64,000 bases of DNA, taken from Lytechinus pictus. Its lineage: Eukaryota. The notes beneath the pieces are model-generated. The model ran no database searches, was not told the origin of the DNA, and saw only the letters and a list, made by a program, of their open reading frames with translations. Made by a program: the position numbers and the translations under genes. Positions 3,912-44,600 of the stretch are shown here, one piece after another; the stretch's first letter is position 1, and the number at the start of each line of letters is the position of its first letter. Where the stretch lies: assembly GCF_037042905.1 (NCBI RefSeq), contig NC_087245.1, positions 1,364,001-1,428,000 on the forward strand, written 5' to 3'.

Positions 3912-3963
<52 letters not shown>
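3912..3963. repeat. (TA)n microsatellite
   Basis: Seen directly. Confidence 0.95.
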
Positions 3964-3965
<2 letters not shown>

Positions 3966-4008
3966 GAGATGAGGCCAACTCAAAAGATGACACAGGACAC
4001 CATTCTTA

Positions 4009-4046
4009 TATTTAGCTTTCGTCTTTAATAAGACTTCGTCAGAAGC
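4009..4046 (-). ncRNA. Minimal type I hammerhead, stem I weakened
   Basis: Same core and stem II as 4596-4633, but the 3' strand of stem I is AAUA rather than AAGC. Confidence 0.65.
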
Positions 4047-4595: not shown

Positions 4596-4633
4596 GCTTC
4601 TGACGAAGTCTTATTAAAGACGAAAGCTAAAGC
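4596..4633 (+). ncRNA. Minimal type I hammerhead ribozyme
   Basis: GCUU-CUGACGA-A-GUCUU(AUUA)AAGAC-GAAA-GC-UA-AAGC: full core, 5-bp stem II, 4-bp stem I, palindromic AGCU helix III. Confidence 0.8.
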
Positions 4634-14700: not shown

Positions 14701-17700
14701 CACGTTGTCATGCAGATATAGCTTGGAAGACACATTCTATACACAGTCAATCATTATGTTTGGTGGAAAGTTTTTCACTTATGCACAGTTTTGCTGCAAT
14801 TGATTTTCCTTTGATTTTTATTATTTAAGCTTTACTTTTCCTATTAACATTTTCGGACGGACTGAAAATATTCATCTCAAGTTCGTTGAATTCCATGAAT
14901 TCCGTGTTTTCCTGATATCCGTAATTTTTGTTGTTTTTCCGTTTTCTGAATCGCATAAAACTGTTAACTCTACTTTTAAATAATAGCAACTTATGTGACG
15001 TAGCTAATTTGTAAAAATATGCTTGCGCAGAATAGCTAATCTCTGTCTTGCGCACGTGCATCCCATCATGGTACTCATGCATGGTATGTAATTGGGCCAA
15101 TCAATATCCTGACAGAAGTTGCGTGGCAGGTCTTATATCTAGACTCACGTGCATGGCCGTTGTTTTCTACAGTCGCGTCCATGGTAACATCTTCATACGA
15201 CTCTAGATTGAATGAGGCATATTCAATATCTCGAGTCCACTTTGTGACGATGTTGATAGGTGATTGAGATGAGCCATCGCAGGAGGATCCCGGAATGTCT
15301 TTCCAAAAAGATTGATCTGGATAAAAGAGATTAATTATCATCATCATCATTATCATCATCATATCATCGTCGTCGTCGTCATCATCATCACCACCACAAC
15401 CACCATCACAGTCATCATCATCATTACCACCCACATGACCACCACCATCACACCACTGTCATCATCATCATCATCATTATCATCATCATCATCTTCATTA
15501 TCATCATCATCATTATCATCATCATCATCATCATCATCTTCTTCTTCATTATCTTCTTCTTCCTCTTCTTCTTCTTCTTAACGTGGAGGGAAGTGTCTCG
15601 TGTGAGCTCGTAAGATTTTTCGTTTTATTGGGCCTTTTCTGGTCCTATTGTTGTTATGAGTAGTATTTAGTGTTTTCTAAGGCAAAGCTTTATTTGGTCC
15701 ACCATTGTTGGGTTGTATTTTTCTGTAAAATTGTGTAATTTTCAAGTGTTTTTTTTCTTGTTGTGAGTGAAGTGGCCATGGCGGCTGATGCTGGGCGGGA
15801 GCCCCGGGACCTTCCCGGGACTTCAGCCCAACAACCCTCGGGTTTTCTACCTACCCGAGTCAGTCGAAAGAATGGTATATGTTTTGTTTCGACTCCAACT
15901 ATTTCAATTCATGATTATGTAAAGGAATTTGCTAACGCATGTGTACCAGCTGACTGTATTGTCTCGGCATCTCGCATCAGCCAACAGAGAATTGCAATTT
16001 ATTTAAATTCTCGTACGGCAGTGCTGGATGCCGTAGACAAAGGCTTTACTTTTCAGAACTCGTTTATTGAATTGTCACCACTTACTTTGCCCACTACTCG
16101 TTTGACTCTCTCGAATGTATACCCTGAAATACCCAACGATTTGTTAGTGAAACAGATTGCAGCCTTTTGTAAGGTCGTGTCACAAATTCGTTCCATTCCA
16201 TTAGGTTTCAAAGATAAACCATTTTCCCATATCTTGTCCTTTCGGCGACAGGTTCAGGTCCTTATTAATCCTAATGTTACCCCACCCGCCCATCTCGATT
16301 TCTCACTTGAGGGTGTGAATTATCGCGTCTTCGTTTCAACTGACGAAATTCGATGTTTTGAATGTGGGGAAATGGGTCACCTTAGCCGGACCTGTAAAAA
16401 GACAGACCGTCAAGGTCTTACCGAGAGAGTATCGGATAGGGGCAAGGTAGGTCCAAAACATCAACCAAAGGGATTTAAATCTCATATCACGAATAATGTG
16501 CCTCTTAATGTAGAGCCCGTTCATGGGCAGAAACAGAACATCCTCCCAGAAAGGCCCTCAAATCACGCCAATTCTGTCGGTTCTGAGGGGTCCTCTGAGA
16601 TAAACGAGTCGAATACCCCCAAATCGCCAAAGTCCTCAGAACCACTGTTACCTTTTCCTCCACCACCCACTAGACTTTTTTCTGATATTGTTGCTAAAAG
16701 GAAAAGAACTCCTTCAAAATCTTCTCCTGACACCCCGATTCTTACTCCCCTCACTTCGAAAACTCCACCAAGGAAAATGAGGAAATCACCCCCCTCTACA
16801 CCTATTTCAACAGGCCCCCCTCCTTCACCTGTCCTCCTGTCCTCTCCTGCCCCATCGTCACCTAACACCTGGTCCTCTTCAGCTCCGCCCCCACCCGGCA
16901 TCCAATCCTCTTCAGTTCCACCCTTCCCCGCCTTTCAGCCCTCTTCAGTCACTCCCTCCCCCGTTATCCAGTTCTCTTCAGCTCCTTCCTCCCCAAACCC
17001 TTCCACCCCTTCCTCGTTGTGGGATGACACCCTGTCTGACGACGATTCGGTCGATTGGGCGTCATCTTTTCCGTCAAGTCAGGGCCCTTTGTCTGACAAA
17101 GATTTGTTGAAGTTTCTAAAGACAGTCAAAGCAAGAAAAAAACCAATTGAAATTGCCCGGAAATTCACCTCGAATGTACCCGGCCTTGTTAGGCAATTGA
17201 TTCCTTTACGGAATAGTTCAGCCTTCAAGAAAAGTACCCAGCAGCGGGTACAAAAATTAATCAGAAAGTTAGAAGACTGTGCTTAGTTCTTTTTTTTACA
17301 TGCTTGGTAAGACCCTGTATGCTCTCCACCTTGCAATGACCTTGTCATTCCTCACGCTGAACACTGGAGGATGTTCTGGATCAGTGAAAACTGCCTCTAT
17401 TCATTCTTACATTGAAAATATTGCAATTAGTCCTGATGTTATTTTTCTGCAAGAAACTTATGATTTAACGCCACGTTCTTCTTGTTGGAATTTATGGAAA
17501 TCATATTTGATAAATTGTTCTTCCGGTATCTCTCGAGGTTCCGGCATAACCACCATTGTAAAGAAGAATCTTGTTGGCTCGTTTGATAGCTTAGCTATAG
17601 TTGACAGTCATATACTATATTCGAAAATTTGCATTGATGATACATTTTATCACTTGTATAATATTTTGATACCACAAGATGATAATTTTGCTTTAAAAGC

Positions 17701-20700
17701 CATTAAATCACTTCATGATCACTTGTGCACGATAAATAATGGCGTTATTATGTTAGGGGGAGATTTTAATTGTACCCTTAACCCCGCTCTTGATCGCCTG
17801 AGCATGCCAAAAGAACATAGACATAAAATCTCTACACAACTTGGGAAAACGATTGATTTTTTCACCCTTTGTGATGCATGGCGCAGACTCAATCCTTCTC
17901 AAAAAGCTTTTACCTGGCATAGGCGAAACCCACGAAGCATTCATGGCGTCTCGCGTGCAAGACTAGATCGCTTTTATCTGCCTGTTGGTCTCACCCCTTC
18001 TATTCACAAATGCGGCATTTTACCATGCTCTCTCTCTGACCACGATGCGGGTTATTTAGAATTAAAACCTCCCAAACACAAACATAGGGGAAGTGCATAC
18101 TGGCATTTCAACAACTCTTTACTTGATGACGAGAATTTCAAAAATATTATTGTACATTTTTGGACCGATTGGAGGCTTCACAAAAATGAATTTGTGAACA
18201 TTTTGATGTGGTGGGATGCTGGCAAATCCCATATTAAAAGAATTACTCAAATGTATGGAAAAAAGATAGCTGATGAAAAACGGGCTGCCTTTGTGAAAAT
18301 TAATAACACTATTGAGCAGCTCCAATCCAATTTTGTTTTGTCAAGTAATACAGAACAAGAGATAATCAGAAACAGAAAGGAACTTAATAATTTGTTAAAA
18401 TATGATGCCAAGGGTGCTTTGATTAGGTCACGCTTTAAACTAGTCCAAGAGGTTGATACGAGCTCGTCCTTCTTTTATAACTTAGAGAAGTCGAACTCTT
18501 CACGGAAAAGAATTTCTCAGATCCGCCTCCCCTCAGGACGCACCACAGTAAATGAAAATGAAATTAAGAACCATGTGTACTCTTTTTACAAGGACCTTTA
18601 TAGTTTTTCTCCCATTGATGGTATTTCTGCTGAACTTTTTTCCAACATTAAACGCTTGGATAAGGATGAACAGAAAAATCTCGATTCGCCCTTTTCAGTA
18701 GAAGAATTAACACAAACTGTCAAACAATTAGGAAAAGATAAAACACCGGGTATGGATGGCCTCACTACGGAGTTTTATCAAACTTTTTGGCCCACGTTTA
18801 AGAATGATTTCTTTGAAGTCTTACAATTTTCTATTTCAAATGGCAGTTTACCACGTTCTTTTCGTAGGGCAATCATTAGCTTGATCCCCAAAAAGGGAGA
18901 TCTTGCTGAGATTACCAACTGGCGTCCTGTCTCACTTCTTAACGTGGACTATAAAATATTTGCAAAAACCCTTGCCAGTAGATTGAAACTCTGTATTGGG
19001 AGCATTATTCATGAGGATCAAACTTATTGTGTCCCAGGTCGTACCATTTATGATAACATCATTTTAATAAGGGACATTATTCATTATGCAAATTCTGCCG
19101 ATATCCCTCTTGCCTTGGTGAATCTTGATCAAAAGAAAGCGTTTGATAATATATCTCATAAATATCTTTTTGATACAATGAAGGCAATGGGATTCGGATA
19201 CTCGTTTATCTCGAGTGTTAAGTTGTTGTATTGTCATGCAGAAAGCTTTGTTAAAGTATGTGGTTCATTAACCGCACCCTTCCATTTCCAAAAAGGGATT
19301 CGGCAAGGATGCCCTCTTTCGGGCATGCTATACTCAATAGCAATTGAACCCTTTCTCAACTTACTTAGACAAAATCTGGCCCAGTGTAATTTTAAAATAC
19401 CCGATATTAATTTGAATTTATCTGTATCGGCCTACGCTGATGATGTTACAATATTTTTATCTTCTGAAAATGGTTTTGATATTATTCAGAATGTTTATAA
19501 TACGTACAGTAAGTCTTCTAATGCTTGTTTAAATTACAATAAGTCAAAGGGCCTTTGGGCTGGATCGTGGTGTCGACGAAATGATAAACCACTTGTTTGT
19601 CAATGGAGTAACGAAGGATTAACTTTTCTTGGAGTTCAATTAGGTAACACCAATACTTATTATCAACAAAACTGGGTGATTTGTAAGGATAGACTAAATA
19701 AAACACTTTCTCGGTGGACCCCTCTTTCTAATTATTTATCATTTAAAGGCAAGATTCTCGTAGCTAACCAACTAGCTGCCACAAAAGTGTTTCATTTTCT
19801 GGCTACACTATCGGTCCCCAATCACACACTCAATGAACTCCAGGACATGTTGGTCAATTTTGTTTGGTCTAATAAACGTCATCTCATTAAGAAACAAATA
19901 TTGTCTTGTGAACCCAACAATGGTGGACTTGGTTTAGCTTCTCTCCAAGCACGAGTCCACACTTTCCGTTTCTGTTTTTTTCAACGCTTTCTTAATTTTT
20001 GCTCTCACCCTGCTTACCTACTCTGCTCTCTCAATCTTAAAAAATACAGGGGTCTAAACTTTGATTCCCAATTGTGTTTTATTGATTTAGACCCAAAATT
20101 TCTCACCAATCTGCAATGTTTTTACTCAGAATTATTAGTTGCTTGGAGGGCCTCAGGAGCTCACATTGACATTACTTCCCTCTCAGTTAATCATGTCTTA
20201 AACATGCCGCTCAATTATTTTCCTTTAATTCCCCCATCGCTAGAAGGCAGCACGGTCTTCCCTGCACGGCTCTTCGTGTGTCGAATCACGCTCATTAAGC
20301 ACATCATTGACCCCTTCAACGGCAAGTGGCGCACAGTTGACAGCCTTCAACTCCATCCAGCCTACGATGCAAGTCGTCAACGCCTTTCTCGACGTTTGAT
20401 TGGACAAGAACTTTCCATCCTGAAATATCGCCTATCTGCCATCTTCCCTACTATTTTTACTTTAGCTGGACTCAAAGCCCCTCTTCGTCCACTTTGCAGC
20501 TCACCCACCCCTTTAGTGATTAAACTGGTGAGAGGGACAGCTACAGCTGAACTATCTACAAAATATATTTATCGTGCATTGAAACGCCGAGTAAACAGTT
20601 ACGATTCATCACTTCCTTCACACTGGCATGAAAATGGAACTCTCTCAAGTAACACGAAAATTAACTGGACACAAATATATGCCCCACCTACAATTAAAAA

Positions 20701-23700
20701 AGACGGGGACATACAGTACAAGCTTCTCCACAATGTCCTACCATCTCTACCAGTACTTCATCATTTCAACAAAGACATTCCAATTCAGTGTGGATGGTGT
20801 GGTGAGACGGGAACCATCTTCCATCTCTTAATACAATGTCCGGCCATCCAACCATCACTCATCGTTCTACATCATCTAATTAAGCGTCTCATTCCGAACA
20901 TTATTATCGACTTTGAATTATACTGGGCGCTGGTTCCGCATGCTTCGGGCCGTTGCAGGGAAGCCGTGCGTTTATGTAATTTTTTGTTTATTAGTTTCAA
21001 AAGTACCATTTATTGGCTGTATCGTTCTTTGAATTTTTCAGTTCCCCTATTGGTTTGGAAATCCAAAGTGAAAAGCAGGATTCTTCTAGATTATGAGTTT
21101 CATAAGTTACAAAATAATGTCAATGCCTTCTCAAAGCGATGGTGTGTGAACAATGCTCTTTGTTCTGTCGGCACCTCTTTTGAATTAGTTTGGTCTTTTT
21201 GAATATAGGAATGTAAGCCTACCTTTACTTTACTGGTTGTGTAATGTTTTTTTTCTTGGTTTGTTTATATGAGTCCTTATTTGTACTTATAAAGTATATT
21301 ATTCTCATATTTTATTTGTATATATGTTATAGTTTGATTGTAAATAAAGTTTCATTTTGAAAAGTCAAAAAAAAGTCTTCTTCTTCTTCTCCTTCTTCTT
21401 CACCTTTACCATCGTCATGAGATTATAGAAATATCCACTACCTTCATCGCCTTAATGTTCACAATGATGATGGTGATGATTATTATTCAAACCCTTATTC
21501 ATTTTGAGGCCGTCATTACATACATCAAGCAACCCTCTCAGTGTGATGATCTGACCTGTTTTTTGTTTTATTTCCATATTATTTGTCTTGTATTTGAAAG
21601 AATGTGTTAACGTATTCATTAATTTTCTGATATATGTATGTCATGTTTTAAAACGCAGAAATTAATTAATCTAACGAACAAACAAACTTTCATATAGATA
21701 GAAAATAATTAGAAAGTAGACTGCATGACATAATAGAAGGTTATGGTCAAAATAAGAAACATTGTCAATATAAAAGGAGGAAAAATAATCATAATGAAAT
21801 TGTTTATTCACGACGCTGAAGTCGATGTCAACAATTCGACACACAAGTAAGAGGCCTGTGGCAAAGAAACCAAAGAACTCAACCAAACTAATTGTTAAAT
21901 TGAAAATATTTCATTTCTTCTTAAATTTTGTTTACCATAATTTTGTAGCTGGTGTACTTACCGGTATCACCAGCTCCTGCATAAGTCCAAGTGGAACTTG
22001 CTGAAAGATAAAGGGAAATTGATAATAAGACAATTAATTTCATTTACTTGTTCCAACTTAACCCCTCTTTCTCTTTTCCTTATACCCTGCCCCCTTTCTC
22101 CATTTTCTCTCTCGTTTCCTTCCCCTCTCCCCCCCCCCCTCTCTCTCTCTCTCTCTCAAGTCTCTTTTCTTTTCCTTTCTTTCTTTCTTACTCCAACGCA
22201 CCTGTAAAGTATGCAGCAGCAAAACATGAATTCCATATTTTCACCAAATTCAAGAATTCAGTTTATTGATTTTTTTTCTCTACAGGTGTTGATTCTCTGG
22301 AACTGGAAGGTGTGTGTGATGTGTTGTGAAATGACAGCCCCCAATTTCCCCTATCTTCAATTTGTTCATTTCGTTTATTTCCATTTCACACAATTACCAA
22401 AGTCATTTTCTGTCGTACATCATGGCTTAAAAGTAAAAAATATATACATTGAAAATGTTGAACATAGACAAGATAACAGGTTCGTAATAGATTATCATAG
22501 ATTACATGTATTTTTTTAAACCACTAAGTTGACAGTTAACATAGTAACTAACATAACTACCTTTTCTGAGAGTTTACGGGATGTCAATCCAGCATGACAA
22601 TTTTGTTTATTCAGCTTATACCACCACCCATTAAAAGGCTGCGAGACATTCATGACATTATCGGCCACTCATGATCCTTCGAATCGGATCTAACTGAAGT
22701 GCTCAATATCAGAGGCAGTGATCATACAAGGGGTATGGCCAGTGGCGTAGCTACGGGGGGCCTGGGGGGGGGGGGGCACGTGCCCCCCTGAGATTTGGTG
22801 TGCCCCCCCCCCCCCGGTGCCCCCCTGAAAAAATTGGCAGAGCAAAAAAAAAGGGAGAAAGAAGAAAAGAAAAAGAAGGGGAAAGACAGAAGAAAAAAAG
22901 AAGAGGAAAATAAGAGGAGGAAGACGAGTGAATAAAATAATGTGAGGGGAAGACTTGCAAAAAAACCCAAATCTTTCATGTTACTATATAACATTTTTGC
23001 TCGCGCTTCGCGCTCGGATTGCCTGTTCGATGAGATTCATATATTGCTCAATAGGGTGATATGGAGTCGCCATGTATGTTGCTGCATATATGTTCTTTAT
23101 TCAGAATGTGTTTGAATTATCCAGTATGAGATCAGAACTTTTATCAATAATTTTCTGCTCGCGCTTCACGCTCGCATTATAAATGATACCCAATTAACCA
23201 CATCCTATTCATGATTTACAAAATATCAATAGAGTGTCCCGTTTTTATAAGAGTCAATCTAAGAAGTGACCGATCGGGGAAATATATAGGTGTAGATAAT
23301 TTCGGCTCCCCCCCCCCCTTATTGGCGAAAGTCGGATTGGCCCTTGTGACACGCACAGAAAAAAAAATGTTGCCCCCCCCCCCTGAAAAAGCAAGGACCC
23401 CCCAGTGCCCCCCCCCCCCCAGGAAAAAAGTCCTTGCTACGCCACTGGGTATGGCGCAATTTTATGATTTTCTATGAGTAAAATATAGAGGGGGAGCAAA
23501 GGATAAAAAAGATAGGTCTCTATAGACAGAACCTAATTTTAATGATTGTATTATTATATGGTGAGTGTGATGGTGTACGCGTATGTGTGTGCGTTATATG
23601 TCGTGTTTTCTTTACATGTTGTTTATCTATGATGACGATGATGATGATGAGTGATGATGATAAGTGATGATGATAAGTGATGATGCATGATGATGATGAT

Positions 23701-26700
23701 GATGATGGTGGTGGTGATGATGATGATGATGATGAGTGAAGATGATAAATGACGATGCATGATGATGATGATGGTGGTGATGATGCATGATGATGATGAT
23801 GGTGGTGATGATGCATGATGATGATGATGGTGGTGATGATGATGATGGTGGTGATGATGATGATGATGATGAGTGAAGATGATAAATGACGATGCATGAT
23901 GATGATGATGGTGGTGATGATGATGATGATGATGAGTGAAGATGATAAATGACGATGCATGATGATGATGATGGTGGTGATGATGCATGATGATGATGAT
24001 GGTGGTGATGATGCATGATGATGATGATGGTGGTGATGATGATGATGGTGGTGATGATGATGATGATGATGAGTGAAGATGATAAATGATGATGATGATG
24101 ATGATGATGATGATGGTGGTGATGATGATGATGATGATGAGTGAAGATGATAAATGACGATGCATGATGATGATGATGGTGGTGATGATGCATGATGATG
24201 ATGGTGGTGATGATGCATGATGATGATGATAATGATGATGATGATGATGGTGGTGATGATGATGATGATGAGTGAAGATGATAAGTGATGATGATGATGG
24301 TGGTGATGATGCATGATGATGATGATAATGATAATGATGATGATGATGATAAAGAAGAAGATGATGATGATGATGATGATGATGATAATGATAATGATGA
24401 TGATAAAGAAGAAGAAGAAGAAGATGATGATGATGATGATGATGATAATGATGATGTTTATGGCGATGATGATGGTGTTGGTGGTGTTATTGGTTGGTGG
24501 TGTTATTATATAGGGATTTTTCATTAATGGCATGTGACAAGTTAAGGTTTATAGTTTATACAAGAGAAGAGATGTTTCGGAGGGATATAGGGAATATGTT
24601 CCAAAGACGGGGGCAAGATATAGAACGGATGGAGGGTTGATCTCTGTTGCTGAAATAGTGAAGAAATGTAAGAAGGAAGTGTGGTTGACAGAGATTTATA
24701 AGTTTGAACAAGACGGCATTCGATAATGAAGTTCATTTAGTATAGGGGTAGCATTATGACACCATTTTTGGTTTTGACATATTAAGCGTGATCATTTATT
24801 CATAAGGTGTTGAAGTCTTCCTGTATAGATATTCTGTATATTTCCAACTTATCATTTGATTACAATTCGTAATTATTTGTATAAACTTAACTTTTTTTTG
24901 TATTATCACCTGTTAATAATTATGATTATTATGTTTTATGTATTATTCATGTACATGTATACTAAGATTGGGTGCCTTTTACTTTGTACATTTTATTCAT
25001 GGCACGGCCCCAATACAAATCAGACTCTGTATCTGTTTGGGTTTTTTACCGTGTGAAAATAAAATTTATCTATCTATCTATCTTGTTTACTAATATCCCC
25101 AAGCAAGCACCCACCGTAGTCAAGCATGGAGGGCACACGTGCTGTCCTAACAATTAAAGTTATGACATGTGTCCTTATCTAAGAAACTCCTGATGCGATT
25201 GAGATTGTAGATTTGCCCGTTGAGCGGAGTACGACACAAGTTTGTTACATGTTCGGTCATTTTCATGGTAGAAGATATGGAAATATTTATGTCATTAATA
25301 TAGGTTCATGGAACGGATTGAGGTGTGCAGGAGATGCAGTAACAGTTAAAGAACTCTGTTTTGCTACAACTTTACTTACGAATTGTAGACACAGGTCTAT
25401 ATAACTACCTAAACTTGTGTAATAAAAGAACTATCTGTAAAACACCAGTAGACATTGACAGATTCAGGATACGTGAAAGTACTGGGAGTAAAACAGACAA
25501 TTGCTTCTTAATCGGCCAAGAAAGCATTGGAATGCAAGATTTAGAAGAAAAGATTGAAAAGCATACGTTGTAAGACAGGGGCGGCGGAACCGAGGGCAGG
25601 GGGCACTTGCCCCACCCCCCCCCCCCTTCCTCGTAGGAAAAAAATTCCTTTTTTCAAAATGGAAAGTGCCTTTTTTTTTATAGTAAAACATAATACATTT
25701 TAGGTTAGAATATCACAAAATTTCTGGCTCGCGCTTCGGGCTCGCATGATGATGATGGTGGTGGTGGTGGTGGTGAGTTAGAGTGGTGGTGATGATGATA
25801 ATGATGATGGTTGCTAGTAGTGGTGGTGATCATGATTTTGTTTCTTCAAGTTCATACGCATTGAAGGGTTGGTATTTAGCTTGAACATCCCACCCACATC
25901 TTATACTTTCACCCTTTTCGTGGGAATATTGTGTTCTGGTGAGACACCTACACGTATCAAAACTCGATGAAAACATCTGCTCTCTATATTAAACATTTTA
26001 CATCTCTATTCTTTCAGGATTTGAATCCAATTTAGTTTTTGAAAGGTCATGTCAATATGTTCACCCATCGATTCAACCTGTGAGAGAAATCGTGCTTGTC
26101 TGTTTTCTATTCTTCAATTTTTGAATATTTGGCAACTGTTGATAAATGCAGACTTTCACGTGAATTTAGTGTTAGTATGTTGAATGTTCTATGCGTGAAG
26201 CGATGTTGTATGTCCATGAAAAAAATTAATAATCGCTTGCTAGTTAGCCCTGCTTGATGTTCTCTTCACTTCATTATGAATAAATATCAATTTATATAAC
26301 TACTTTTATAATTATGATTAGGCTATATCAAATATAGGAAGCACATGTAGGTTTACTGCAGATACTGCATTTTGGCGATACGGAAAACAATGATTTCTCG
26401 ATTTTTTTTTTCGTCATAAAACTTAAAGGGATGGTCCGGGCTGAAAATATTTATACCTTAATACATAGAGTAGAATTCACTGAGCAAAATGCCGAAAATT
26501 TCATCAAAATCGGATAACAAATAATAAAGTTATTGAAGTTTAAAGTTTAGCAATATTTTGTAAAAACAGTCATCATGAATATTCATTAGGTGGGCTGATG
26601 ATGTCACATCTCCACTTTCTGTTTTCTTATGTTATTGCATAAAATCATATTTTTTTCATTATTTCATATTTGTGTGAATAATATGTCTCCCTTATAATGA

Positions 26701-29700
26701 AATAAGTTGCAGCAATAAATATCTAATGCACTAAATCAGTTGTCAATCCAATTTTTCTAGTTCTTGGAGGAAAAAAATTGAATAAACCTAATTTCATATA
26801 ATAAAATACAAAAGAACAAGTGGAGATGTGACATCATCAGCCCACCTAATGAATATTCATGATGACTGTTTTCAAAAAGTATTGCTAAACTTTAAAATTC
26901 AATAACTTTGTTATTTGTTATCCGATTTTGATGATATTTTCGGCATTTTGCTCAGTGAATTCTACTCTATTTATTAGGCTATTCATACTTCCAGCCCGGA
27001 CCATCCCTTTAATGTTCCAAATGACAAAGAGTTTGATATAGATAATGTTAGCGATATGGTGTAGAACTTAATTGATTACACTCCCCTACTACACTCCCCT
27101 ACCTCAATGTGATGATCAATATTTCTTTTGTCATTACAGACAGTACTTGATTGAATAGGTAGGCACAAAGTTGAGATCATTCAGATAAAATCCAGACATC
27201 GATATCTGTCGTCACGTGACGCGATCGAGATCAACGAGGTATAGGCCTATACCACTGATTGTTGAAACGGCGACAGGTTGTTCATAGTTTTGATGTTAAA
27301 CGCGCTAGTATAATCTCACACTCTACAACACTCCACATAATACCAGAATGATGATACAGTCATACTTCTTGAAAGCCCCCCCCCCCCCCCCTTACGGAAA
27401 ATGAAATATCTCACAAATTTGACAATAACAATTACAAGAAAATATATATATTCACACTTTTTGCTGTAGATAATCTAAGCGTGTACTATGTAGGCCTATT
27501 GGTGAAGAGTATAATGCATTTTGAGTTTGCAAATAATTGCATGGAAATAATTATGATCATTATAATTATATTTAAAAAATGGTTTCACATAGAAGTAATG
27601 CCGAAAATTTGTTTACAAATTATAATTTATTTTATTAAATCGCTGTCCGGAAAGCAGTAAATAACAGGTTCGAATCCCACTGGTTCCAATTTTTTCTGAC
27701 TTATGATTTTCATTACAAATCGAGCATGCGATCTTCAACACATAGGAGTTATGCCGAAAATTTGTTTACAAATTACAGTAGTTTCATACAGCAATATGAG
27801 TTTTCAAATATAAAATAGGAAATCTGAAAGAAAAATGAAATAATCGGTGGTTGTCGCAGTGCCGTAGAAGAAGGCCTATACTCCAAAGCATTTTAAGATC
27901 ATTCGAAAATAATATTAAGCATCTCGTGGGTATTTGTAAGAATTGCATGCACGAAAAATCCTTAGAAAACTTTGGGAAGCTTAAACTGTGTCAGGGACAA
28001 TAATCATTTGATAAGGATCCGTGTCACCACTCTAGAGTAATACTGGCGACAGGGACATCATGTACAAAGACCTAATTTGTCCTAATGTCATTCTTTCAAA
28101 TCCACAACTAGATTCACTTTGAGATGATCTTCTATCGTGTCATTTACATACCCTCATTCTTCTCATTAACGCGATATCACTTATCACCATCTTTGATATG
28201 ATGTAATTATAGTCTTCTTAATTTATTTGTTAGTGACAAATGAACAATAAACTTTTCTTCACTAGTTCTTTTCCAGACTTCATGGAAAAAGTTCGAGCCT
28301 TACGTCTTCGTGATGACATTAAAGGTTGTTCCCTGATGTAAATACTCATAACTGATTGAAGCACGTCTGTAAATTACACAATTACGCATTTAGCATTCGA
28401 ATACTTTTTATACCTTTTTTCTTTCTTTGCTCTGTCATCATTTTGTTCCCTTTTAAAGTTAAAAATCTTAATAAAACATTTTTTTCGATTAATTATTTTG
28501 AACTAAAACAATCCTGAGGGAAAAAGATTAATTTGTGTATTGTATTTACGTTGTAACTCAAAATATTAGAATACAGTACATCTACATGCCAATAAAACAT
28601 CGTTTGCAAAAATAGGAATATATTGGCATTCGATCATGAGTCTCTGTCAACGAAGATTTATTTTGCTTTATCCCCATCCAAAGGAAATTGATGAGTTCCA
28701 AACAAGACATTACACCACCACACCCCCCCCAAAAAAAAAAAATTACATCAATATAAAACATATTATACCCACATACAATCATCAATATTATATTGTATGC
28801 TCGATGTTGTGATGTAAGTAGCCCGCTAATAGGCTTTCAACTAAATGCATTCGTTGTCTATTCAAGGACAAAGTTAATACCAAGTTGAGTGATATTATTA
28901 TTCGGGTAAGAAATAAGTGGGTAGAGATACACGGGGTAGGTGCGTATGAGGGCCGAGGTACAAACGGTGCCCTATTTATGATTTTCTGCAACTGAGCGAG
29001 GAGAGCGAGCCAAAAATTATACAAATTTATTTTGTTGGAATTGTGTGGGTTTTTTTCTCGCTTGCTCGTATTAATTCTCTTATTTTGTTCAAATCAGTCA
29101 TATTTCGGGGAGGGGGCGTTGTATAATAACGATTAATTGCCATTTGAGGAAATTGAGTATCTGAATATAAAAACGGCCCAAGTCCAATTTTGGGCGAAAT
29201 TGAGTTAAATATGGGAAAATGTTCCTTATACAATGACTTATCTTGTGTATAAATGATAAATCTGAAATCATCTCAGAAATGCCCTAAATAAAGGAGGAAA
29301 CTTTAGTATGAGTGTAAGAAAAGCCCAAGTCTAGGACTTGGGCTTTTCTTATATTCATACCATAGCGCCCTCTCTCATTACTTGTACTACTTACTACACA
29401 CAACTGGGCGTTGTGGCGTGCGCCTGTAATCCAAGCTGTGGGGAAGTTACAAATTGATGCAGAGGTTCGAGCCCTGGTCACGTCTCTCGGACGGTGACGT
29501 TAAAGGTCGGTCCCAGACGTAAATAATCATATCTGATTGATACACGTCTGACAAAACTCAAATACACACACACACACACACACACACTGTAAAAAATTTC
29601 CGAATCAGTATTTGACACTTAATGTATTTAAATAAGTAAAATTTACAATTTGTAATTATTTTTCGTTTTTTTAAGTAGTTTTAACTTGTCTTTTAATTCA

Positions 29701-32700
29701 CTTGATTTACTTGATTTATTTGGTTTCAATATACATTTAGGAAAATTCACGTATTGCTAGCTTGCTTTGATTGAGTAAATCTAACTCAATTAGGCAAAGA
29801 TGATTATTACTTATAAAATCATGTTGAATGTATTTATATTTTTCAATTAACGCCTTATTCAAATAATGCATGAATATTCATTAGAGCAAGTTAATGGTTT
29901 TTTAACAACTGTCATATCTATTTGTGTTTGAAATTGTTTTGGATAAGGGCGTGCTAACTATTTTATTCTTTTCTTGAATCAAAGAAAGAGCAACATTAAA
30001 TAGTCATTTAGCAGAAAATTTCAGATTTCTTTTTAGGTTTTCGGAAAATGCTTATATTATTTTCACTGTTTTATTTGTAAGAATGAAACGATCGCGTATA
30101 AATATCAATGTCAGTACCTATACATGTACAAGTAAGTGACAATGCACAAAGTCTAATATTTGGATAAAAGATGTCTAAGATGAAAAAAAAAGTGGGACGA
30201 TGGGGGAGCGAAAGTCCACTCCCCCATTTGATTTTTTTCAAATATTTTAGTGATTGTTTTACTTAATTGAATTAAGTTATTGTAACTTAATTTTCTTGAG
30301 TAAAATGGATGCACAGAAAATAAGTAAATTTTACTTAAAACTGCCAAACTCATAAATACTTGAAAAAATTAAGGCAATTTTTTGCCACAATTTTTTTTGA
30401 GTAATTTCAACTAATTTTTTTTTACAGTGTACAAAAGTCTACCATGAATGTAAGAATGACCCAAGTCCATTTGATTCTAAAAACGACCCAAGTCCACCAG
30501 ACAAAAGGCCCAACCCACAAGTAAGGTGAATATTAATGTTCATTAAAAAATGTACGCTTAAAATTGTTTTATGATGTTTTTTCAGCCAAATATACTTTAA
30601 TTGCCCAAATTTAAAAAGTATCAATTTTTTCGATTTTTTCTCGAAATGACCTCGTATGGACTTGGGCCTTTTTTATGTTCATATACTCAATTTTGTCTTT
30701 AATCATTTCATTGGTACTACATCAAACGAATCTCCGATTTTGATTTGTTTTTATAATGTTGCTATCATTATAGGCCTACATATGCAATGATGGTAAAGTA
30801 ACCTTCATTTAGAAGCTGAAACGTGACCCGGAATAAGTTTCCTGATACGCTAGGGGGGAGGGGCATTAATCCAGGGAAAGGGGTGGGCTTGGCCTTCCAT
30901 AGATCCATTTGACCCGTGTGATATAATTTGTCAAAAATGGTTTGGCAACTTTTGACCTCTATTTTTTCTTGGCATGACTTCTGCACACCACCCCACGTAC
31001 CCCCTTCACTGTTCGATCCTTGCCCCCCGGCCCTCTGCGGGGCCCTCTGGCTCCCAATGTACATCTGCATGGTAAAGTAGTTTTTCGCTAATGACATGGA
31101 TGATACCAGCGATGAGTACGTAACGACTTTACAAGACGTCCTGCATATGAACTTTTATTGAACTTGAATACACTCAATGAGACAGGAGCCATCGTCTTTT
31201 AAAAACCCAGACGGATAATGATGACATACAATAGAGTCAAAAAATTTATTATCCATTCGTAATAACCTACCGCCTGATGATCGATAGATGTATCCAATAT
31301 TGTACCATCAATTATTGTCAGTGAGTTCTGAATATTGATGAATAAGACATTACACATGTTACAAGTGGTGGGAACCGTTCATGATAACTGGACATGCATA
31401 TCTAATTTATTCTGCTCGCGGATCTACTGGTGGTATGACTGTAGAGTAATCAACAAAACAATTACTCTGAGTGTGAATTGGAAGAGGATCAAACCCAAGA
31501 CCGGCCTCCATTCATTATTTCTTGTTCTTCCCCTGAGCGTACACGCCAGGACATTTCACATTATTGTGCAAGCGATCCAGGGCACTGGGAACGATTTTTT
31601 TACTGTGGGTGCTGATGCAATTTTGACAAGCAAAACAAAGGGAGTTTCACTACAAAATATAGGTCATTTTGGTTACATTTCTCCATTATATAACACCTAT
31701 CAGAATGACATGGGGTGCTGTCTATGGAAAATACTACACACAGCACCTCCTTTAACACCCCCGCTCCCCAGGGCCATGAAGCGATACCACGCTTTGATCA
31801 ACATCAATCAAATCGTTATGTTAAAATTCAAGTTAAAAATCTATTTGAAACTTTTCATAAAAATCCCCAAAAATTGCAACATACATTTTATTATGCAATC
31901 AAAACAATTACAATATCAAAGACTGTTAGACTGATAGTGTGAAGTACAACCATGTTAGTAAAATGAAGAAAACGAGAGAAACTCATTGGTATCATGCCAA
32001 AATGCACTTTCCTAATTTATGTGCGCATTCCACACTATGCATTTTTGTTCTTCACCCAAAACGACCTTTAATTTCACTTCCAATGTTCCAGAAGTCACCT
32101 ATATTTCTGTCAGGGGTAACTGATGTGATCTATTTCTATCTTATCACAAAACCAAAACAAACACTAAACACCAAACAATCAAGGGGAATAAAACGATTTG
32201 TTTTGAATTGTTTTGAAGCTCTAATTAGTCTGAAGAATAAAGCACACAAATTAAACTCTGAAGTTCAGCATTTGATCAACAAAGGTTACGATACTGTTAA
32301 TCTCGTAGACAATTATTAATATTCTGAACGTTATTTGACGGTTGGGTTCGATTTGAGTTCGAGGAGTCACTAAGAGTTTAAAGACACTATGGAGTAATAA
32401 TCTAAGACGTGTGAGTGGTGCTTTGATTATACCCCAATCAATAAATTAAAGCACGTGCTCTCAATAAAATATCCTAGATGTGATAAGAAGTGTTTGCTAG
32501 TCAAACAGAAAGAGCTACTTGATTTATAATGGAAGCAAGAGGAATACCTGCTGAAAAAAAAACAATGTAAGCTTCCATGAAATATGTTAAATTAATTATT
32601 ATATGTTACAAGTAAGTAACGAGTCTGTAGAGTGTGATGGGGTGTGTGTGTGGGGGTTTGGGTGCTTCTGTGTGTTTGTGTGTTTCTGATGAATCTGATG

Positions 32701-35606: not shown

Positions 35607-38600
35607 TCTTCAACCTCGTCAGTCGGGAGGGGGGGGGGGGCAAAAAAGTTCTTTTAAGCTCGTCAGGGGGGGCAGGTATATGTCTTTTGTATGGGTTGTG
35701 ACTCGTCAGGGGGGCAGAGTGCCCCCCCTGCCCCCCCCCCGTAGGTACGCTAGTGGAGAGGGGGGAGAGAGAGGGGGGAGAGGGAGGAGGGAGGGGAAAA
35801 GCCAACATCACAAGGGAAGGAAGAAAGTTGGGTACCGATCGCCCAATTAGTCCAGGATAGGCCCCATAGACAAGGGGTCGAACCTTGTTTTTTTAGATAT
35901 ACAATGTTTTTTTATGGTTTCTTGTCAATTCGAGGGTGCTGATTCCGAATCTGAATGATGCCACTTTTGTAACCTTGAGCATTTTCCGCAAATTGGCAAA
36001 ATCCAATATGGCCGCCAAAATATGCAAATTACCCATGAAAATCATAAAATTGCCCACACATTAGCTATAAAATGCATGTAGTTGTTGTGCAGAAGTGAAA
36101 TACCAATTGGAAAAGCGATATTTGACAAAATATTTATTTTATTGATATTCAAAATGGCCGCCATGACCCCTGTATACTTTATTATGTAGAATATGAATGA
36201 GGAAAAACATTTTTTTTAAACAAGAGCACTATTATTGCATGTGATTGTGACCTGCGAGTGGACTACTGTCTGATAACATGACTATTAACAAAACTATGTC
36301 ATTTGTATACTATCTAATGTGATAAATGCTGTATTATGATATTCAAAATGGCTGTCATAGACCCCTTATACTGTGTACAATATATAAAAGGGGACAAATA
36401 ATTTTCACAACCTTTGAATTTGTTTGACTTTAAAATGCCAATAACTGCGAAATATTGGTGTAACACTGTCTGACAACAAGGATTTCTAACAAAACATATA
36501 ATTTCCCTTGCAATTTCGGTAATTATGCTGCATGTTGACATTCAAAATGGCTGCCATAGGCCCTATCTGTATTATGAACAAAGCGAATGAAGAAACTAAT
36601 TTTCACAAGAGTAAAAACAATAAAATGAATGTAATTGTAATCTACGAGTGAAATATTGTCTAAAAACATGTTTTCTGGCGAAACATATCATTTCCTTTTT
36701 CATGCATGAGATAAATGCTGTATTGTAAAATTCAAAATGGCCCCTATGGGCCCTTACAGTATTATCTACAATGTAAATGGGGACAAATACTTTTGAAAGA
36801 ATTAGGATTAGCCTGACTATGAAATCCATATAATTTTGTTGTATAAGGAAAATATTGTTTGATTTTTTTAATGAAACATAACATTTCCTCTCCCATGTAG
36901 GTGATAAATACTATATTTTGACTTTCAAAACGGCCGCACAAGCCCCTACAAATTCTGTAACATGCATATAGGGAAACTAATAATCACCAGAATGAGAACC
37001 AAAATCGCACGTAACTATGTGATGTATAGGTAAAATTTGGTCTTGAACATGATTTTTGACTAAATACATCACATAATGGTTGAGAAGGTAATAAAGGCCT
37101 TACTTTGAAATTCAAAATTGCTGCCATAGCCCAAAGTAGTATGTACATTGTAACTGGGGACAGATCATTTTGACAAAATTTTTACTATGAAAATGGCTTA
37201 ATTTTGATGTAAGTGTTAAGTATTGTCTAAACCCAATGATTTCTAACGAAATATATCATAGCTTGTGTCATAAAGGTGATGAATGCTGCCTTTTAAAAAT
37301 GAAAAATTGCCGCCATAGTCCCTTATCTTAATATGTAAACTTTGAATGGGGAAAGATAATTTCCACAAAGAAACATATTGCAGCCATTTTGAAATTTAAA
37401 TATAGCATTTATCACCTAAATAACATAAGAAATTATCTATTTGTTTAGAAATCATATTTTCAGACGGTATTTCACTCATACATGCAACACCATTTAGTCA
37501 AGCAAAGCCAAATTCTGTTAAAATTATATGTTCCCATTCATAAAGTACATAATATGCCTACCGTTAGGGCCTGTAGCGGCCATTTTGACTTTCAAAATAC
37601 AATATTTATCACCTACCTGGCAGAATGAATGATATATCTTGTTAGAAATTATGTTTTCAGACAATATTTTACTCTTAAATCACAATTATATGCATGTTAT
37701 GGTGCTGACTCCTGTGAAAATTGGTTTCCCAGATCGATTGTATATACATAATACAGTCAATGTCTTTTGGCGGCCATTTTGAAAGTCAAAATACAATATT
37801 TAACCCAAATATGAAACCCGAATAATATATTTCGTTGCAAATTATATTTGAAGACAGTATTCCACTAATTTACCACGAAAAATACGTTTTAGTGCTCACC
37901 TTGTGATTGTTTTTGTCCTCTCTCACATCGTAGATCATAATTTTAGGGCCTTTGGTGGCCATATTAAATATCAAAATACAGGGTTTATCACATACATGGC
38001 ATGTTAAATAATAAATTTCGTTAACAATAATGTTGTTAGTCAGTATTCCACTCGTTTATCTTAACAAAATGCATTTTAGTGCTCACTCTTGTGATTTTTT
38101 TGTGTCACAATTCACATTGTACATAATAGTGTTAGGGCTTTGGGAGGACATTTTGAATATCAAAATACAGGATTTATCACATAACTGACATAACAAATGA
38201 TATATATCGTTAGCAATCATGTTTTCAGACATTGCTTCACTCATAGATCATAATTACTTGCATTTCAGTGCTCAATTTTGTAAAAATTAATTTTCCCCAT
38301 TCATATTGTACAGGGGTCTATGATGGCGGCCATTTTGATATCAAGAAAATAAATATTTTGACAAAATCATTTTTTCAGATATTATTTCACTCCGGCAGCA
38401 CAATTGCATGTACTTTATAGCCAATGTGTGGACAATTTTATGATTTTCATGGGTAATTTGAATATTTTGGCGGCCATATTGGATTTTGCCAATTTGCAGA
38501 AAATGCTCAAGGTTACACGAGTGGCATCATTCAGATTCGGAATCAGCACCCTCGAATTGACAAAAAACCATCAAAAAACATTGTATATATAAAAAAACAA

Positions 38601-41600
38601 GGTTCGACCCCTTCTATCCTGGACTAAATTGGAATTCGCTCTATATGATTCGAGATTTTTTTTTTTTCAATTTGATTTTAAAACAATTCAAACTAAACTA
38701 AATCAAGTTCGATTTAATCTAATTTTAATAGAAAAGAGTCAGGTGTCAGCGAATATGACCATATGCAATGTCATTGTACTACCCTAACAGCCCGTCCCCA
38801 TGAATTTGAAACTGAAACTGACATATACCTAAGGAAGGAAGCCAAGCTCATAGAACATGTAGAAAGAGTGAAGTGTGCCCCATTATATTGGCCACTTGTA
38901 GCCCCATCTCGAAGACTCGTATACAAACTACATTCCAAATAGCTTTGAATGATATATCCATGGAAAGCGCAAATGGATTGGATCCGAATGAAACCATTCC
39001 TAAGATTGATTGAAATCCCTCTGGCTTCTTAAAACCTCATTTCAGATTCTGTTTTCAATCTCAAAGTACTATTTGAGAAAAGTTCAAACGTACATTCTGC
39101 GAGAGTGATATTTAAAGCTAGGGTTACACCAGAACCGAATCAGCTGCGAATTCATCTGAATACACGTATTCGGGTGGTTTCGAGAGTATTCTGTTTTCTC
39201 TCCGCGAATGCGAGAAAATTCGAAAGGGATTGGGGAACATTCGAATCCATTCACCGAAACCATCCGGATCAGGCCGTATTCGGGCAGAATCAGTCTGCAT
39301 TTCTTCGGGAGAATTTTGTTTTGGTATAACCCTAGCTTTAAAGAGTGTATTCACCCTTATTTTCCATATCTTGCAAGAAAAGGTACCAGTTGAATTGTGT
39401 GATGAATAAGACACAAAATGTGGCTGATTGTACGATGTGGTCGACGTACATGAATAATTCAAAGACCAATCTACTCATGGTAAACCCCCAACAATAATAC
39501 GTAGATTGAACTGTGTTGTACAATAGCAGAGAGAATATGGTGATGAATTTTTAAAATGTAAAGGCCCGGTCCCATTGCACTTACGGATGCCATGTAAAAC
39601 GTACAAAAAGAAATCTTGCCATCCGTTGGAGAACGCTATGCATCCGTTGTGTACTCATTGGGTAAGTGTTAAGGCCACCGCACACCTTACGACTGTTCGC
39701 GATCCGATTTTGGAACAAATCGCATTTTGCTCATTTTCTGAAAACGTGAATGGAACATGTCATTTTATTTGAGGTGAAAATTAATTGAAAGAATAATATA
39801 TCCATTTTGTAAGATTGTAAGCCTTTATTTTGGAGAAAAGGCCAAATTAGTTTCAAATCGTAGCCAATCGTACGACTGCTATGAAGTCATTACGACTAGA
39901 TATTAAACTTGCATTTATTCTAAGATAGTTACAGATTTGAAGATAGGTATTCGTACGATGATTTCGAACATTACACAATAAGATATTCCAAGTCTCAATA
40001 TTACGTTTTATTCCTAAATTGAGTCGCAGACAAATCGCAAGGTGTGCGGTCGCCTTTATATACGCTCTATCCATTGAGCATCCGTCCACTGTGATTTCAT
40101 CCGCGCAAAAAATATTTGAGCTGCACAAAACTAATCTAAATTCCATCCATTTTCATCCGCAAGGTTTCCGATGAACAACCGTTTAACATCCGGGCTACAT
40201 ACTACCCACGTCCATTCTTTTCCGTTATGTTTTCGCTAATTTTGCCCGTTTCTGAAGCGGATGAAAACGGATGGAGCCACCTCCGAAATTTTGCTGTGTC
40301 CTTTATGAATACGGTTTGTATCCGTCGGCCAGTGGGACCAGGCCTTTACCTTTCATGACAGTGCTATCATCAATGCCATTCTCTATCAAATCAATTACAA
40401 AAAATATATTCTTCTATTCATGCGTGTCATTCTTTTCTCTGCATCGGATGTTTTCAATCAGGAGATATATACTTTGTTCAGTTAGTACATCCAGACAGGG
40501 CCCTGGGAACGATTTTTTTTTTTACTGGGGTGCTGATGTAAATTTAAATAAGGGGGGGAGGTTTTCACTGCACAATAATCGAGGTCAAATTGGTCCCGAG
40601 GAATTTGAAAAGCAAAAAAAAAGTATCACTACAAAATGAAGGTCATTTTGGGTTACATTTTTCAAATTTTACACATCTTTCAAAATACCTGGCGGTGGTG
40701 CCTATGGAGAATAATACACGCAGCACCACCAAGGAAATTTTGGAGATGCTTTAACACCCCCCGCTTTCCAGGATCATGCATCCAGGTGAATGCAGGAGAC
40801 TTTAAACAAGAGTAAAAAAAAAATACTATAATCGACTTCACATGTACATCTATGGTTGACTCTATTGTCAAAAAAGCTAATGCTCGCTTGAAATTTCTAT
40901 ACCGGTACCAAAATTGCACGAATACGAAATCCAGACGCATTTTAAGCTTTTCATTAATACAGTGTTGATTATGCTAATGCAGCATGGTACTGCAGTCTTG
41001 GAAAGGTTGATCAAAAAAAGTTTATAATTATTCAAAATAAGATTGTTAGATTTATTACTTGCTTACACCCAAGAACACATGTTGGGAAGAATGAAATCGA
41101 AAAAGCTGGCCTTCTTCGCATAGACTTGAGGTCGCAACAACTTATACTTCACCATGTTCATAAAATTTTCTATTCAAACGAATATCATTACATATCAAAA
41201 AATTTTACACGGTCATCTAATATTCACGGGCATGAAACAAGAAATAGTCTGTTTAACCGTAGTAGGTCCATGGTTTAACTTTGTGGTACCTATGAGAAAA
41301 GGTCAAATTGGCAACACATTTTATATAAAGGTATACATTTTTGGAATTCCCTCCCTAATCATGTTAAATCGGTTAAGACTTTTACACAATTTAAAAGAGT
41401 ATTGAAACAACACTTAAAAAATGTCCCCACTCTGTAATGTTAAATATTCTTTCTAATTTCATGTGTATCGTGTAGTCTTATATATAACTATTTAGAGAGT
41501 CAAAAGGGGCCTAAGCTTTCGATCCTAGCAGAATCTTCGTCGGAGGCAAAATGACAAACATATAAAGTGGAACAACCATAATATAGACCACAGACATTCA

Positions 41601-44600
41601 ACAGCAACACTAGAAACAGGGAGACAAAAGGGGCATTAGTGAGAAGAGATGACCAATCAGGTTAATGAAGGGGATGAAAGAAAAGGAGAAGGCAGACACA
41701 AAGGGAAGTCCCTGGTGTAAGTAAGGCCAAAGAAAGACATCAAGCCAAAAGGGATTAGGATATGAGGCAGGCAACATCAAACAGGATCTGAAACAAAACA
41801 GTGATAGAGGGTATGAGGAAGAGATAAATAACGAGAATTAGTGAGAGGTGGTAACAAAGAAAGGCATAATAAACTGGTGCATAAGAGTGGGGGAAAAAGG
41901 GAAAGAATGGGGAACAACTGATAATGTGCAAATTACATAAGTATGTATGATAGAGCAAAAACAAACTAAGAGAAGAAAGTAAGTGTAAAAATAAATCTGT
42001 AAGTATAAGAGTCAAAACTGATCCCTGACGAGCCCCCTCTTTAGAACTTGAAGCCCTTTTTTTTGCTTGTCAATTTTTTTCTGGTACGGAATCCTTTATT
42101 TTTTTTGTGGTTGAAGACCTTTTTTTGGCTTGTCAATTTTTGGGCGGACGAATTTGCCCCCCCCCCCCCTTTGGAAAATCCTGGGTACGCCACTGGCACC
42201 AACCCATGCCTTTTAACAAGCCAGTTGCTTACAACAATGAATCAGCGAGCGTGTGTACATTGACACGGGGTTGGTAGAGCCCTCAAAGCCGAATCCCCTA
42301 ATATGAAAGTCAGTGAGATTTTACAGCAATGTATGTGACTGCCCCCCCCCCCGGGTATAAGTGCGAATCTGTCTTCGTATTTATACCGAAAATCAAAATC
42401 CAAGCTCCAAAATAATAAAAGCATACTCTTCTTCGGAAGATGGAAAACAAGATGCACTGGTTTTGCCGTAATTGTGAGTCATAAGCTATTTCTGCTGCTA
42501 AACAGGGCGGTAGCTAAGTCCAAAGCAGCCATGAAAAAAAGATATAGAGGTCCAAAGAGCTAGAACAGGTAGATGATTTCAATACCCTGCACTGGCAAAT
42601 AAACTAGAAACAAAATCACCAAAAAAAAAGGAATGAGGTACGTTGGGTCAGATTAAAGAGGGGAATTTTGATCTTATGCATTTGAATGACAGAATTTTAT
42701 GTGAAAATTTTGATGATCTGTTACATTTACTGTCATGCTTAAAACATGATGATTGCTCAGTAATAGGTGTATCAATAACTTGGTTTAAAGATGCTGATAT
42801 CCGACTATTTTCAGATACCTTGCTATTCTTTTGTTAATGTAGGGCAGGAATTAAAGAACGGGGATGGGACGTGCCTGTGTGTAAAAGATGAATTAGATTT
42901 TGAATTACGTGAGGATTTATCTGGTTCTAAAACAGGGTATGAAGTAGTCTTTGTTGAAATAACGATTCACTAGAAAAAAGGTTATTATTGGTTGTGTATA
43001 TAGGGCACCAAACTATGAGAGTATGCCTTTTATTGAGGATTTTGAACATCAGCTACAGGTTGTGAGTAGAGAGAACAAGGAGATCTATTTGATGGGTGAT
43101 TTTAACATAAATTTAATAAATTATGATAATGATCCATGTGTGAAAGGTTTTGTTGATTTTATGTACTCTTTTGGAATGTTCTCTCTTATCATGAAACCCA
43201 CTCGTATAACAAAAAATAGTGCAGCCCTGATTGACATTATTTTCACTTATTGCATTCAAAATGAGTTTTGCTCTGGTGTAATTGTGCTCAGATATTTGAG
43301 ATCATATGCCCATATTTTGTGTAAAAAGGATTTTGTAAGAAAAAAGGGAAAGATATACGAAACGGCTTATAAATGATGTAAGAACCTCAAGATTCAAACA
43401 TCACTTGGCTGAAATTGATTGGCAGGCTCTGCCCTCTCTCGAAGGCGTTAATGATTTCTACAAATATTTTTCTACAGAGGTTTCTCGACCTACACAAATA
43501 TTGCTTCCCACTAGTTGAGGTAGCAACACTGTAAGAAGCCCTGGGTAACTCATAGTTTACTGAAGTCAATAAATCGTAAACATAAGCTTTATAGTACCTA
43601 CATCAAGAGACCTACAGTTGAAAATAAAAATAATTATATTGATTATATAAGAATGTATTAATTAATGTTCTTCGCTCAGCCAAGAAAGATTATTTCAATG
43701 ATTTGTTCAACGGTGTTAAGAGTGATATCAGGAAGATTTGGGACTCCCATCAATGAATTGGTTGGACGTCCAAATAGGCAATCTATTCCACAAGAGATGG
43801 ATTTTAATGGTGTACTTTTATCATCAGCCAAGGATAAGGCTGAAAGCTTTAACAAATATTTTATTGGATTGCCCCAGAAATTATCTACAGAAATTACTTA
43901 AGTACCGCAATCTCATCATGATTATATGAAACGATGTAAAGATAAAGCTTCTCTGTTTTTAACTCCTGCTACAAAGGCTGAGATAACTAATATTGTATCG
44001 TCTTTAAAACCATCTAAATCGAGTGGTTCTGATGATATCTTACCTCGAATTACAAAGGAGAGTATTCAACTTTTTGCTGAACCTTTTTGTAAAATCATTA
44101 ATATGGCGTTATCTCAGGGGTCGTTCCAGATAAACTAAAGGTAGCTAAAGTTGTGCCGGTGTATAAAAAATCTGATAGAAAAAAAAGTCATAAAAAATAT
44201 TCGAAAAAGAATCTCTTGAAAAGAAACTGGAATGTTTAGAAGGTCGTTGCGTAAATGCAATAGTTGAAGAATTGATTAAAAAAATAGAAAAGAAAAGGAA
44301 AGAACTTGCAGACAGTTACGATCGGTCGCGTGCGACATGGTACGAAAGTGGAGGAATAGATACAAGGTATTTTAGTCAACTATTACAGTCTAACAAGAAG
44401 AAAAGTACTATAACAAAATTGGTTAAGGTTAACGAAGAAATAACTGAAAAAAAGAAAGAAGTTTTAAATGAAATTAAACCATTTTATACCCACCTTTATG
44501 CTAGGGAATACACGGAAGATATTTGGGATTTTTTTAATGTACCAACGTTAAAATCTGAAAATTCTGAAAGCTGTGAAGGAGATATGATAGAAGAGGAGTG

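Follow-up and report, generated by a model that had tools for sequence, protein, structure and literature searches.

SINEs that are headed by 7SL RNA sequence are exceptional. The account in PMC13023118 (2026) places them in supraprimates, hagfish and one shrew mole, and describes each of them as the two end parts of 7SL, 5′ and 3′, brought together by a central deletion. The first-pass annotation of the DNA considered here had listed Euarchontoglires and hagfish as hosts; Urop of the shrew mole has to be added (PMC13023118). In the descriptions of PMC13023118 and PMC11760393, Alu/FLAM, B1 and Urop open with the 5′ Alu domain, in which the 7SL A box lies; their tail is poly(A), and they are mobilized by L1. 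SINE1-1_EBu from the hagfish Eptatretus burgeri, as presented by Kojima (2020, PMC7245038), retains, along with the 3′ end of 7SL, 96 nt from the 5′ end, including the B box that belongs to it; the tail derives from RTE, and the target duplications are about 17 bp long. Its 3′ end is not of the L1 type and finishes in a microsatellite rather than poly(A). Tree-shrew Tu types II and III, to which PMC13023118 devotes a one-sentence description, have a leftmost unit of tRNA or dual 7SL/tRNA origin; they are multimeric and contain further 7SL monomers.

The other group of interest is the DeuSINEs. According to the description in PMC4824008, the Deu domain measures 330 bp in vertebrates and 70–110 bp in bivalves, with 70 bp in BivaDeu-SINE1 and 110 bp in BivaMD-SINE1, and the Deu families are not described there as having 7SL heads. 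One of them, SINE2-3_SP, comes from a sea urchin and is compared here by its description.

We describe an element of about 185 nt from a sea urchin, composed of a 7SL-like head, a SINE body and a simple-repeat tail. It lies on the plus strand of a 64-kb window, by which we mean the whole stretch of 64,000 nt that was analysed. The best explanation, which we regard as probable, is that a 7SL 5′ domain was joined to a body that is also found, with non-7SL heads, in further marine repeats, and that the element is likely one copy of a chimeric sea urchin SINE family.

The published SINE1 pattern, in which 5′ and 3′ parts of 7SL flank a central deletion and the B box derives from 7SL, is not found in this element. 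With Alu/FLAM, B1 and Urop it shares the 5′ Alu domain at the very start and the 7SL A box, whereas the 3′ part of 7SL, the central deletion, poly(A) and the use of L1 have no counterpart in it. With SINE1-1_EBu it has in common the 7SL-derived head, the microsatellite tail, the non-L1-type 3′ end and a proposed birth from 7SL and an older tRNA SINE; in contrast to the hagfish element, it has only 46 positions of the 7SL 5′ end, a B box that goes with the body, a Deu-like piece and an invertebrate host. A mixed head is possibly shared with the Tu types, which differ in being mammalian and multimeric. The core of our element resembles the start of the Deu domain of DeuSINEs, a group that includes the two bivalve families, but over only about 37 nt, right after the B box. 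The element appears SINE1-like by its 7SL head, but it stands outside the published SINE1 lineages (Alu/B1/Tu, Urop and SINE1-1_EBu). In the literature searched we found no account of a 7SL SINE in an invertebrate; Repbase, Dfam and the SINEBase supplements may bear on novelty.

The head occupies 29403–29449 (plus strand, 47 nt) and corresponds to positions 1–46 of the Rfam model Metazoa_SRP. When the region 27800–30400 was compared with 4227 Rfam families by cmscan, Metazoa_SRP was matched at 29403–29458 (31.1 bits), its E of 1.1e-5 being the lowest among the 15 matches listed. The score lies under the gathering score of 70 for this family, as is expected because only a fragment is present. 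The match begins at model position 1, immediately 5′ of the SINE body. Hand counts on the cmscan alignment give 35 identical positions out of 46 over 29403–29449, with one inserted base, and 29 out of 34 over the first 34 model positions. Twelve of the 14 model base pairs in the head are standard (hand count on the same alignment); pair 10:17 is broken, and pair 11:16 is non-standard, as it is in the consensus too. At pairs 1:45 and 3:43 both sides have changed relative to the consensus with pairing retained, while three loop positions deviate from it. The closing helix retains its pairing, and all 46 positions of the domain are present. The sequence 3′ of the tail is similar to the opening bases of the head, so that one side of the doubly changed pairs could derive from the target site.

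In isolation, the head does not fold more stably than shuffled sequences (z = 0.57, with 142 of 200 shuffles folding as well), and only the first hairpin appears in the predicted fold. By comparison with SRP Alu-domain structures, two of the three loop–loop pairs would be kept and the third would be a wobble. Up to E = 10, the same cmscan search of 27800–30400 gave no match to a tRNA or 5S rRNA family, and ARAGORN detected no tRNA gene in the 64-kb window. The first-pass annotation had called the head 7SL-like, and the Infernal/Rfam comparison bears this out, with tRNA and 5S unmatched; we are almost certain that the head originates from 7SL RNA. Past model position 46 cmscan found no further match to 7SL, leaving 250 model positions unmatched. 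The element is therefore not a 7SL gene, as had been stated earlier, nor is it a full-length retrocopy of the P7SL type, the S domain being absent.

Relatives of the body were found outside the window with an exact 20-nt core motif, used to scan metagenome, viral and prokaryote collections. Four loci in metagenome contigs contain it (L001–L004), whereas none was found in viral contigs or prokaryote genomes. From B box to stem-loop, the window copy is identical to L002 at 78 of 86 columns (91%), to L001 at 71 of 87 (82%) and to L004 at 76 of 95 (80%); L003, whose core contains a tandem duplication of 20 nt, is left out of these figures. The four loci share with the sea urchin element the B box, the core, the stem-loop and a C/A-rich tail, but their heads are of three other kinds, with no SRP match by Rfam in any of the four. 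By eye, an A-box-like motif lies 5′ of the B box in each of them. Their heads are not called tRNA by Rfam or ARAGORN, so the label "tRNA-type" rests on these motifs.

Two of the contigs, L003 (392–600) and L004 (169–372), hold two copies of a SINE-like element with a long head containing A and B boxes and with a (CCAA)n tail; L004 has a 9-nt duplication in the loop of the stem-loop. On the body common to L003 and L004, two more types of head are found in L001 and L002. Head swapping seems common in this SINE lineage. The chimera suggested by the first-pass annotation is supported by these loci, in that the B box and body belong to a SINE lineage carrying non-7SL heads elsewhere.

A predicted RNA polymerase III A box is located within the head at 29407–29416 (plus strand); by hand count it agrees in 8 of 10 letters with the box A that PMC7245038 gives for human 7SL. 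The tRNA-type B box, recognized from its sequence, follows 47 nt further on, at 29464–29474 (plus strand). B box and core are collinear and ungapped in the window copy and in all four metagenome loci, and because the B box is collinear with that of the non-7SL relatives, it belongs to the body and not to the 7SL head. A run of four T is absent from the element, the first one occurring at 29659.

A linker of 14 nt at 29450–29463 (plus strand) spans the head–body junction. It has no match to the SRP model, and 29440–29463 shows no significant match to the heads of L001–L004 (the best score being reached by 78 of 2000 shuffles, in four comparisons). Derivation of the linker from the L003/L004 head was considered and rejected, since 78 and 265 of 2000 shuffles scored as well, which is not significant across four comparisons. 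This lack of a match to either parent points to a lineage that has some history behind it.

The core at 29477–29513 (plus strand) corresponds to the opening 37 nt of a Deu-like central domain. By hand count it shares 26 of 37 columns (70%) with the start of the AmnSINE1 Deu block shown in Fig. S4 of PMC7245038. The block is not traced any further in the element, so that the earlier comparison of the core with the Deu domain applies to these 37 nt and not to the rest of the block. By eye, the core has no resemblance to the 66-bp Meta domain of MetaSINEs in the consensus given in the same figure.

At 29514–29550 (plus strand) the body ends in a 3′ stem-loop of 7 + 6 bp (−11.5 kcal/mol), a predicted LINE-recognition signal. 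This part had been overlooked in the first description of the element, in which head, B box, core and CA/AC tail were correctly placed. Across five sequences, 93.8% of 65 cells are paired, against 23–42% when the alignment is slid. None of the pairs is altered on both sides in these five sequences, and 500 of 500 shuffles reach an equally high score. The stem-loop is conserved, and covariation does not prove it.

The tail consists of an A/C-rich spacer and (AC)12, together at 29551–29587 (plus strand), with (AC)12 at 29564–29587. At the corresponding place L002 has (CA)n, and L003 and L004 have (CCAA)n, so a C/A microsatellite is the tail of the lineage that shares this body; both the stem-loop and the C/A-rich tail are retained in the relatives. 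The idea that the (AC)n run arose merely by slippage of a neighbouring element's end is weakened, since L002 has the same tail. The run terminates inside the left end of this neighbour (29585–30429), and the overlap blurs the 3′ boundary of the SINE and any target-site duplication. An AC run of 7 nt directly 5′ of the head equals the end of the tail run, which fits a 7-nt target duplication in an AC-rich site and is indistinguishable from tail. By script, no target-site duplication of at least 6 nt was found against the tail region, for a left flank that ended 3 nt short of the head.

The neighbour itself is an 845-bp element with short inverted ends (CACTG...CAGTG, then TA); it abuts the tail and is not part of the SINE. 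It is likely a non-autonomous DNA transposon, which we take to be of the EnSpm/CACTA type. Both elements are enclosed by a larger repeat at 29150–30693, with inverted arms of 37 nt (29150–29186 and 30657–30693, 92%) and a recurring 28-nt motif. Within it lies a near-perfect palindrome (29306–29360). Matches to miRNA families at 29291–29375 were set aside, as they arise from the palindrome of the surrounding repeat.

The host locus is an intron of about 31.5 kb (21999–53542, minus strand), the first of a carbonic anhydrase gene, delimited by the tblastn pieces 53647–53543 and 21998–21957. The gene comprises eight exon-like pieces over 53647–5517 on the minus strand, spanning 48 kb, with 77–95% identity to a Lytechinus variegatus protein (tblastn); the SINE is antisense to it. 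A carbonic anhydrase exon, assigned to Pfam PF00194, gives 93% identity to a Lytechinus variegatus protein and 81% and 69% to Strongylocentrotus purpuratus proteins, the only three matches among 22 candidates. The host had been taken for an invertebrate, and the carbonic anhydrase identities specify a sea urchin near Lytechinus. Several foldback (long self-inverted) repeats are scattered over the window, at 3961–4681, 26423–27012, 35843–38632, 57218–58595 and 60788–61403. The first is palindromic at 95.6%, and 26423–27012 matches 57605–58194 at 95%. A degenerate trinucleotide repeat tract of roughly 1 kb, apparent from reading frames of low complexity, is located at about 23520–24550.

A decayed copy of B box, core and stem-loop is present at 28291–28369 (plus strand; BLASTN E = 2e-12, nhmmer E = 6e-13) and is identical to the element at 67 of 86 columns. 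An nhmmer profile built from L001–L004 alone retrieves only the element body and this copy in the window. The first-pass annotation had taken the decayed copy as proof of a repeat; this is right for the body and does not extend to the head, as the copy covers B box to stem-loop only, with no SRP match upstream. A hint of an L001-type head on the decayed copy did not hold up: a 10-nt in-register match is reached by 76 of 2000 shuffles, but 261 of 2926 random stretches of the window score as well globally. Rfam scans reveal no second SRP-like head in the rest of the 64-kb window, and the host 7SL gene is not within it. No second copy with head and body joined occurs in the rest of the window or among the four metagenome loci, and the joined copy has no match in viral or prokaryote contigs.

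The length of the head invites comparison with experiments on Alu. In the work reported in PMC11760393, the 46-nt 5′ domain of 7SL binds SRP9/14 and is enough for one round of mobilization, which in HeLa cells reaches about 86% of the level of full Alu; the match in our element ends at model position 46, the length of the domain studied there. The same source indicates that this minimal 5′ Alu domain, being without a B box, is not capable of a second round of transposition unless a B box is gained. The sea urchin element appears to be just such a 46-nt 5′ Alu domain with a B box supplied.

Since the body recurs without a 7SL-like head in the metagenome loci, it was likely the front of an older, tRNA-type SINE that the head replaced. 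We infer a template switch or recombination by which the 7SL 5′ domain took the place of the front half of a tRNA-type head; the birth proposed for the hagfish SINE1 in PMC7245038, with 7SL joining an older tRNA SINE, would be a parallel route. Transcription by RNA polymerase III is predicted to start from a hybrid promoter of 7SL A box and tRNA-type B box. The head would adopt the fold of the 5′ Alu domain and, by binding SRP9/14, bring the RNA to ribosomes. The reverse transcriptase of a partner LINE would recognize the 3′ stem-loop together with the (AC)n tail and insert copies of the RNA at new sites; the insertion site of the present copy would have been AC-rich. We lean slightly towards a contribution of SRP9/14 binding to mobility. 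For the complete reading, namely a first 7SL SINE family outside vertebrates that has the 46-nt 5′ Alu domain only, owes its B box to a Deu SINE of the tRNA type and, through SRP9/14 docking, outcompetes its tRNA-headed parent for a stem-loop-recognizing LINE, we put the chances at even.

No LINE 3′ end in the window resembles the stem-loop, neither that of the LINE at 15739–21202 nor that of the reverse transcriptase frame at 45440–47404. The former (plus strand) is apparently intact and lies in the second intron of the carbonic anhydrase gene. It has two frames, one of 515 codons with a zinc knuckle and one of 1309 codons with endonuclease and reverse transcriptase, and is presumably L1/Tx1-like. 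The frame at 45440–47404 has 654 codons and, with a separate endonuclease fragment at 42963–43376, represents other LINEs.

That the element is one copy of a multi-copy, chimeric, 7SL-headed SINE family of the sea urchin is in our judgement likely. As an interspersed repeat it is short (<1 kb) and consists of a head, a body and a tail of simple repeats, and the body is repeated at 28291 and in L001–L004. The SINEBase definition, as worded in PMC3531059, asks for a stretch of 60 nt or more that is at least 60% identical to tRNA, 5S or 7SL, while the head has 76% over 46 positions; exceptions with pol III data are admitted there. Fourteen sequencing runs of one organism, from five studies, contain 0.69–0.85 of 13 sampled words of the element, as shares over the whole set of words; one of these runs is a DNA set of only 6 million letters that holds 0.69 of the words. 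Such shares fit a high-copy repeat, and the best holders may include the window's own source. For nine of 13 words, the probability that all lie in the body is 0.17, and that all lie in the body and the pure head 0.52, so the word shares do not settle family status. Six RNA runs with metagenome labels hold three of the 13 words, under the 5-word level, and provide no evidence of taxon or expression.

Of the alternatives, the one that survives best accepts a real 7SL-headed family and gives the head a different task. It would supply an A box and a clean transcription start, SRP9/14 would play no part, and the LINE would find the RNA through the 3′ stem-loop. This would agree with the spread of the same body under non-7SL heads, and with a first hairpin that has one broken pair and three loop positions off the consensus; moreover, the SRP9/14 model, as set out in PMC11760393, is established for L1 and poly(A) tails, not for stem-loop tails. 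We nevertheless consider a promoter role alone unlikely, because the whole 46-position domain has been retained, not merely the first 15 nt with the A box, and its closing helix pairs.

The element could also be a one-off chimeric retrocopy, made when a reverse transcriptase switched from a tRNA-type Deu SINE to 7SL RNA, or a tailless 7SL fragment that came to lie beside a truncated SINE. Only a single joined copy was found, the decayed copy and all four outside loci being without the head, and the word shares are compatible with this. There is precedent for both routes: U6/L1 chimeras for template switching by reverse transcriptase (described in PMC11760393), and tailless small-RNA retrocopies, although those reported in PMC5322556 concern therian L1. 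On the other hand, the spacing of A and B boxes is workable, and the 14-nt linker, unlike both the SRP model and the heads of the relatives, fits a lineage with history. A one-off locus would, moreover, seldom fall in a random 64-kb window, where a family copy often would, and overall we find a single event improbable.

A further alternative concerns novelty rather than origin: the family may be real but already catalogued in Repbase, Dfam or SINEBase, perhaps unlabelled or automatically called "SINE/Alu". Sea urchin SINEs are indeed held in Repbase, among them SINE2-1_SP, -2_SP, -3_SP and -6_SP (named in PMC4824008). Against this, PMC13023118, a 2026 work of the SINEBase authors, names in its account only supraprimates, hagfish and the shrew mole. 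In addition, motif searches of the supplements of five SINE papers (PMC7245038, PMC4824008, PMC5786205, PMC11481361 and PMC4758252, with one file each of PMC4824008 and PMC4758252 outside the search) gave no entry having this core and tail. We regard an existing entry as unlikely.

Finally, a chance look-alike or human Alu contamination is hardly credible: although 31 bits is far under the Rfam gathering score, the E-value of 1.1e-5 holds over all 4227 families for a match that starts at model position 1 directly 5′ of a SINE body, and the element lies inside a continuous sea urchin intron, without Alu continuation or poly(A).

If the chimeric-family reading is true, the sea urchin case would be a further independent origin of 7SL SINEs and the first outside vertebrates in the literature searched. 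It would also break the pattern by which 7SL SINEs arise through a single deletion in the middle of 7SL. Since non-7SL heads occur on the same body, it becomes testable whether the SRP9/14-binding domain itself raises retrotransposition, also with LINEs that read a 3′ stem-loop rather than poly(A). The element would then repeat in nature the experiment on the minimal Alu domain, the parent family serving as control.
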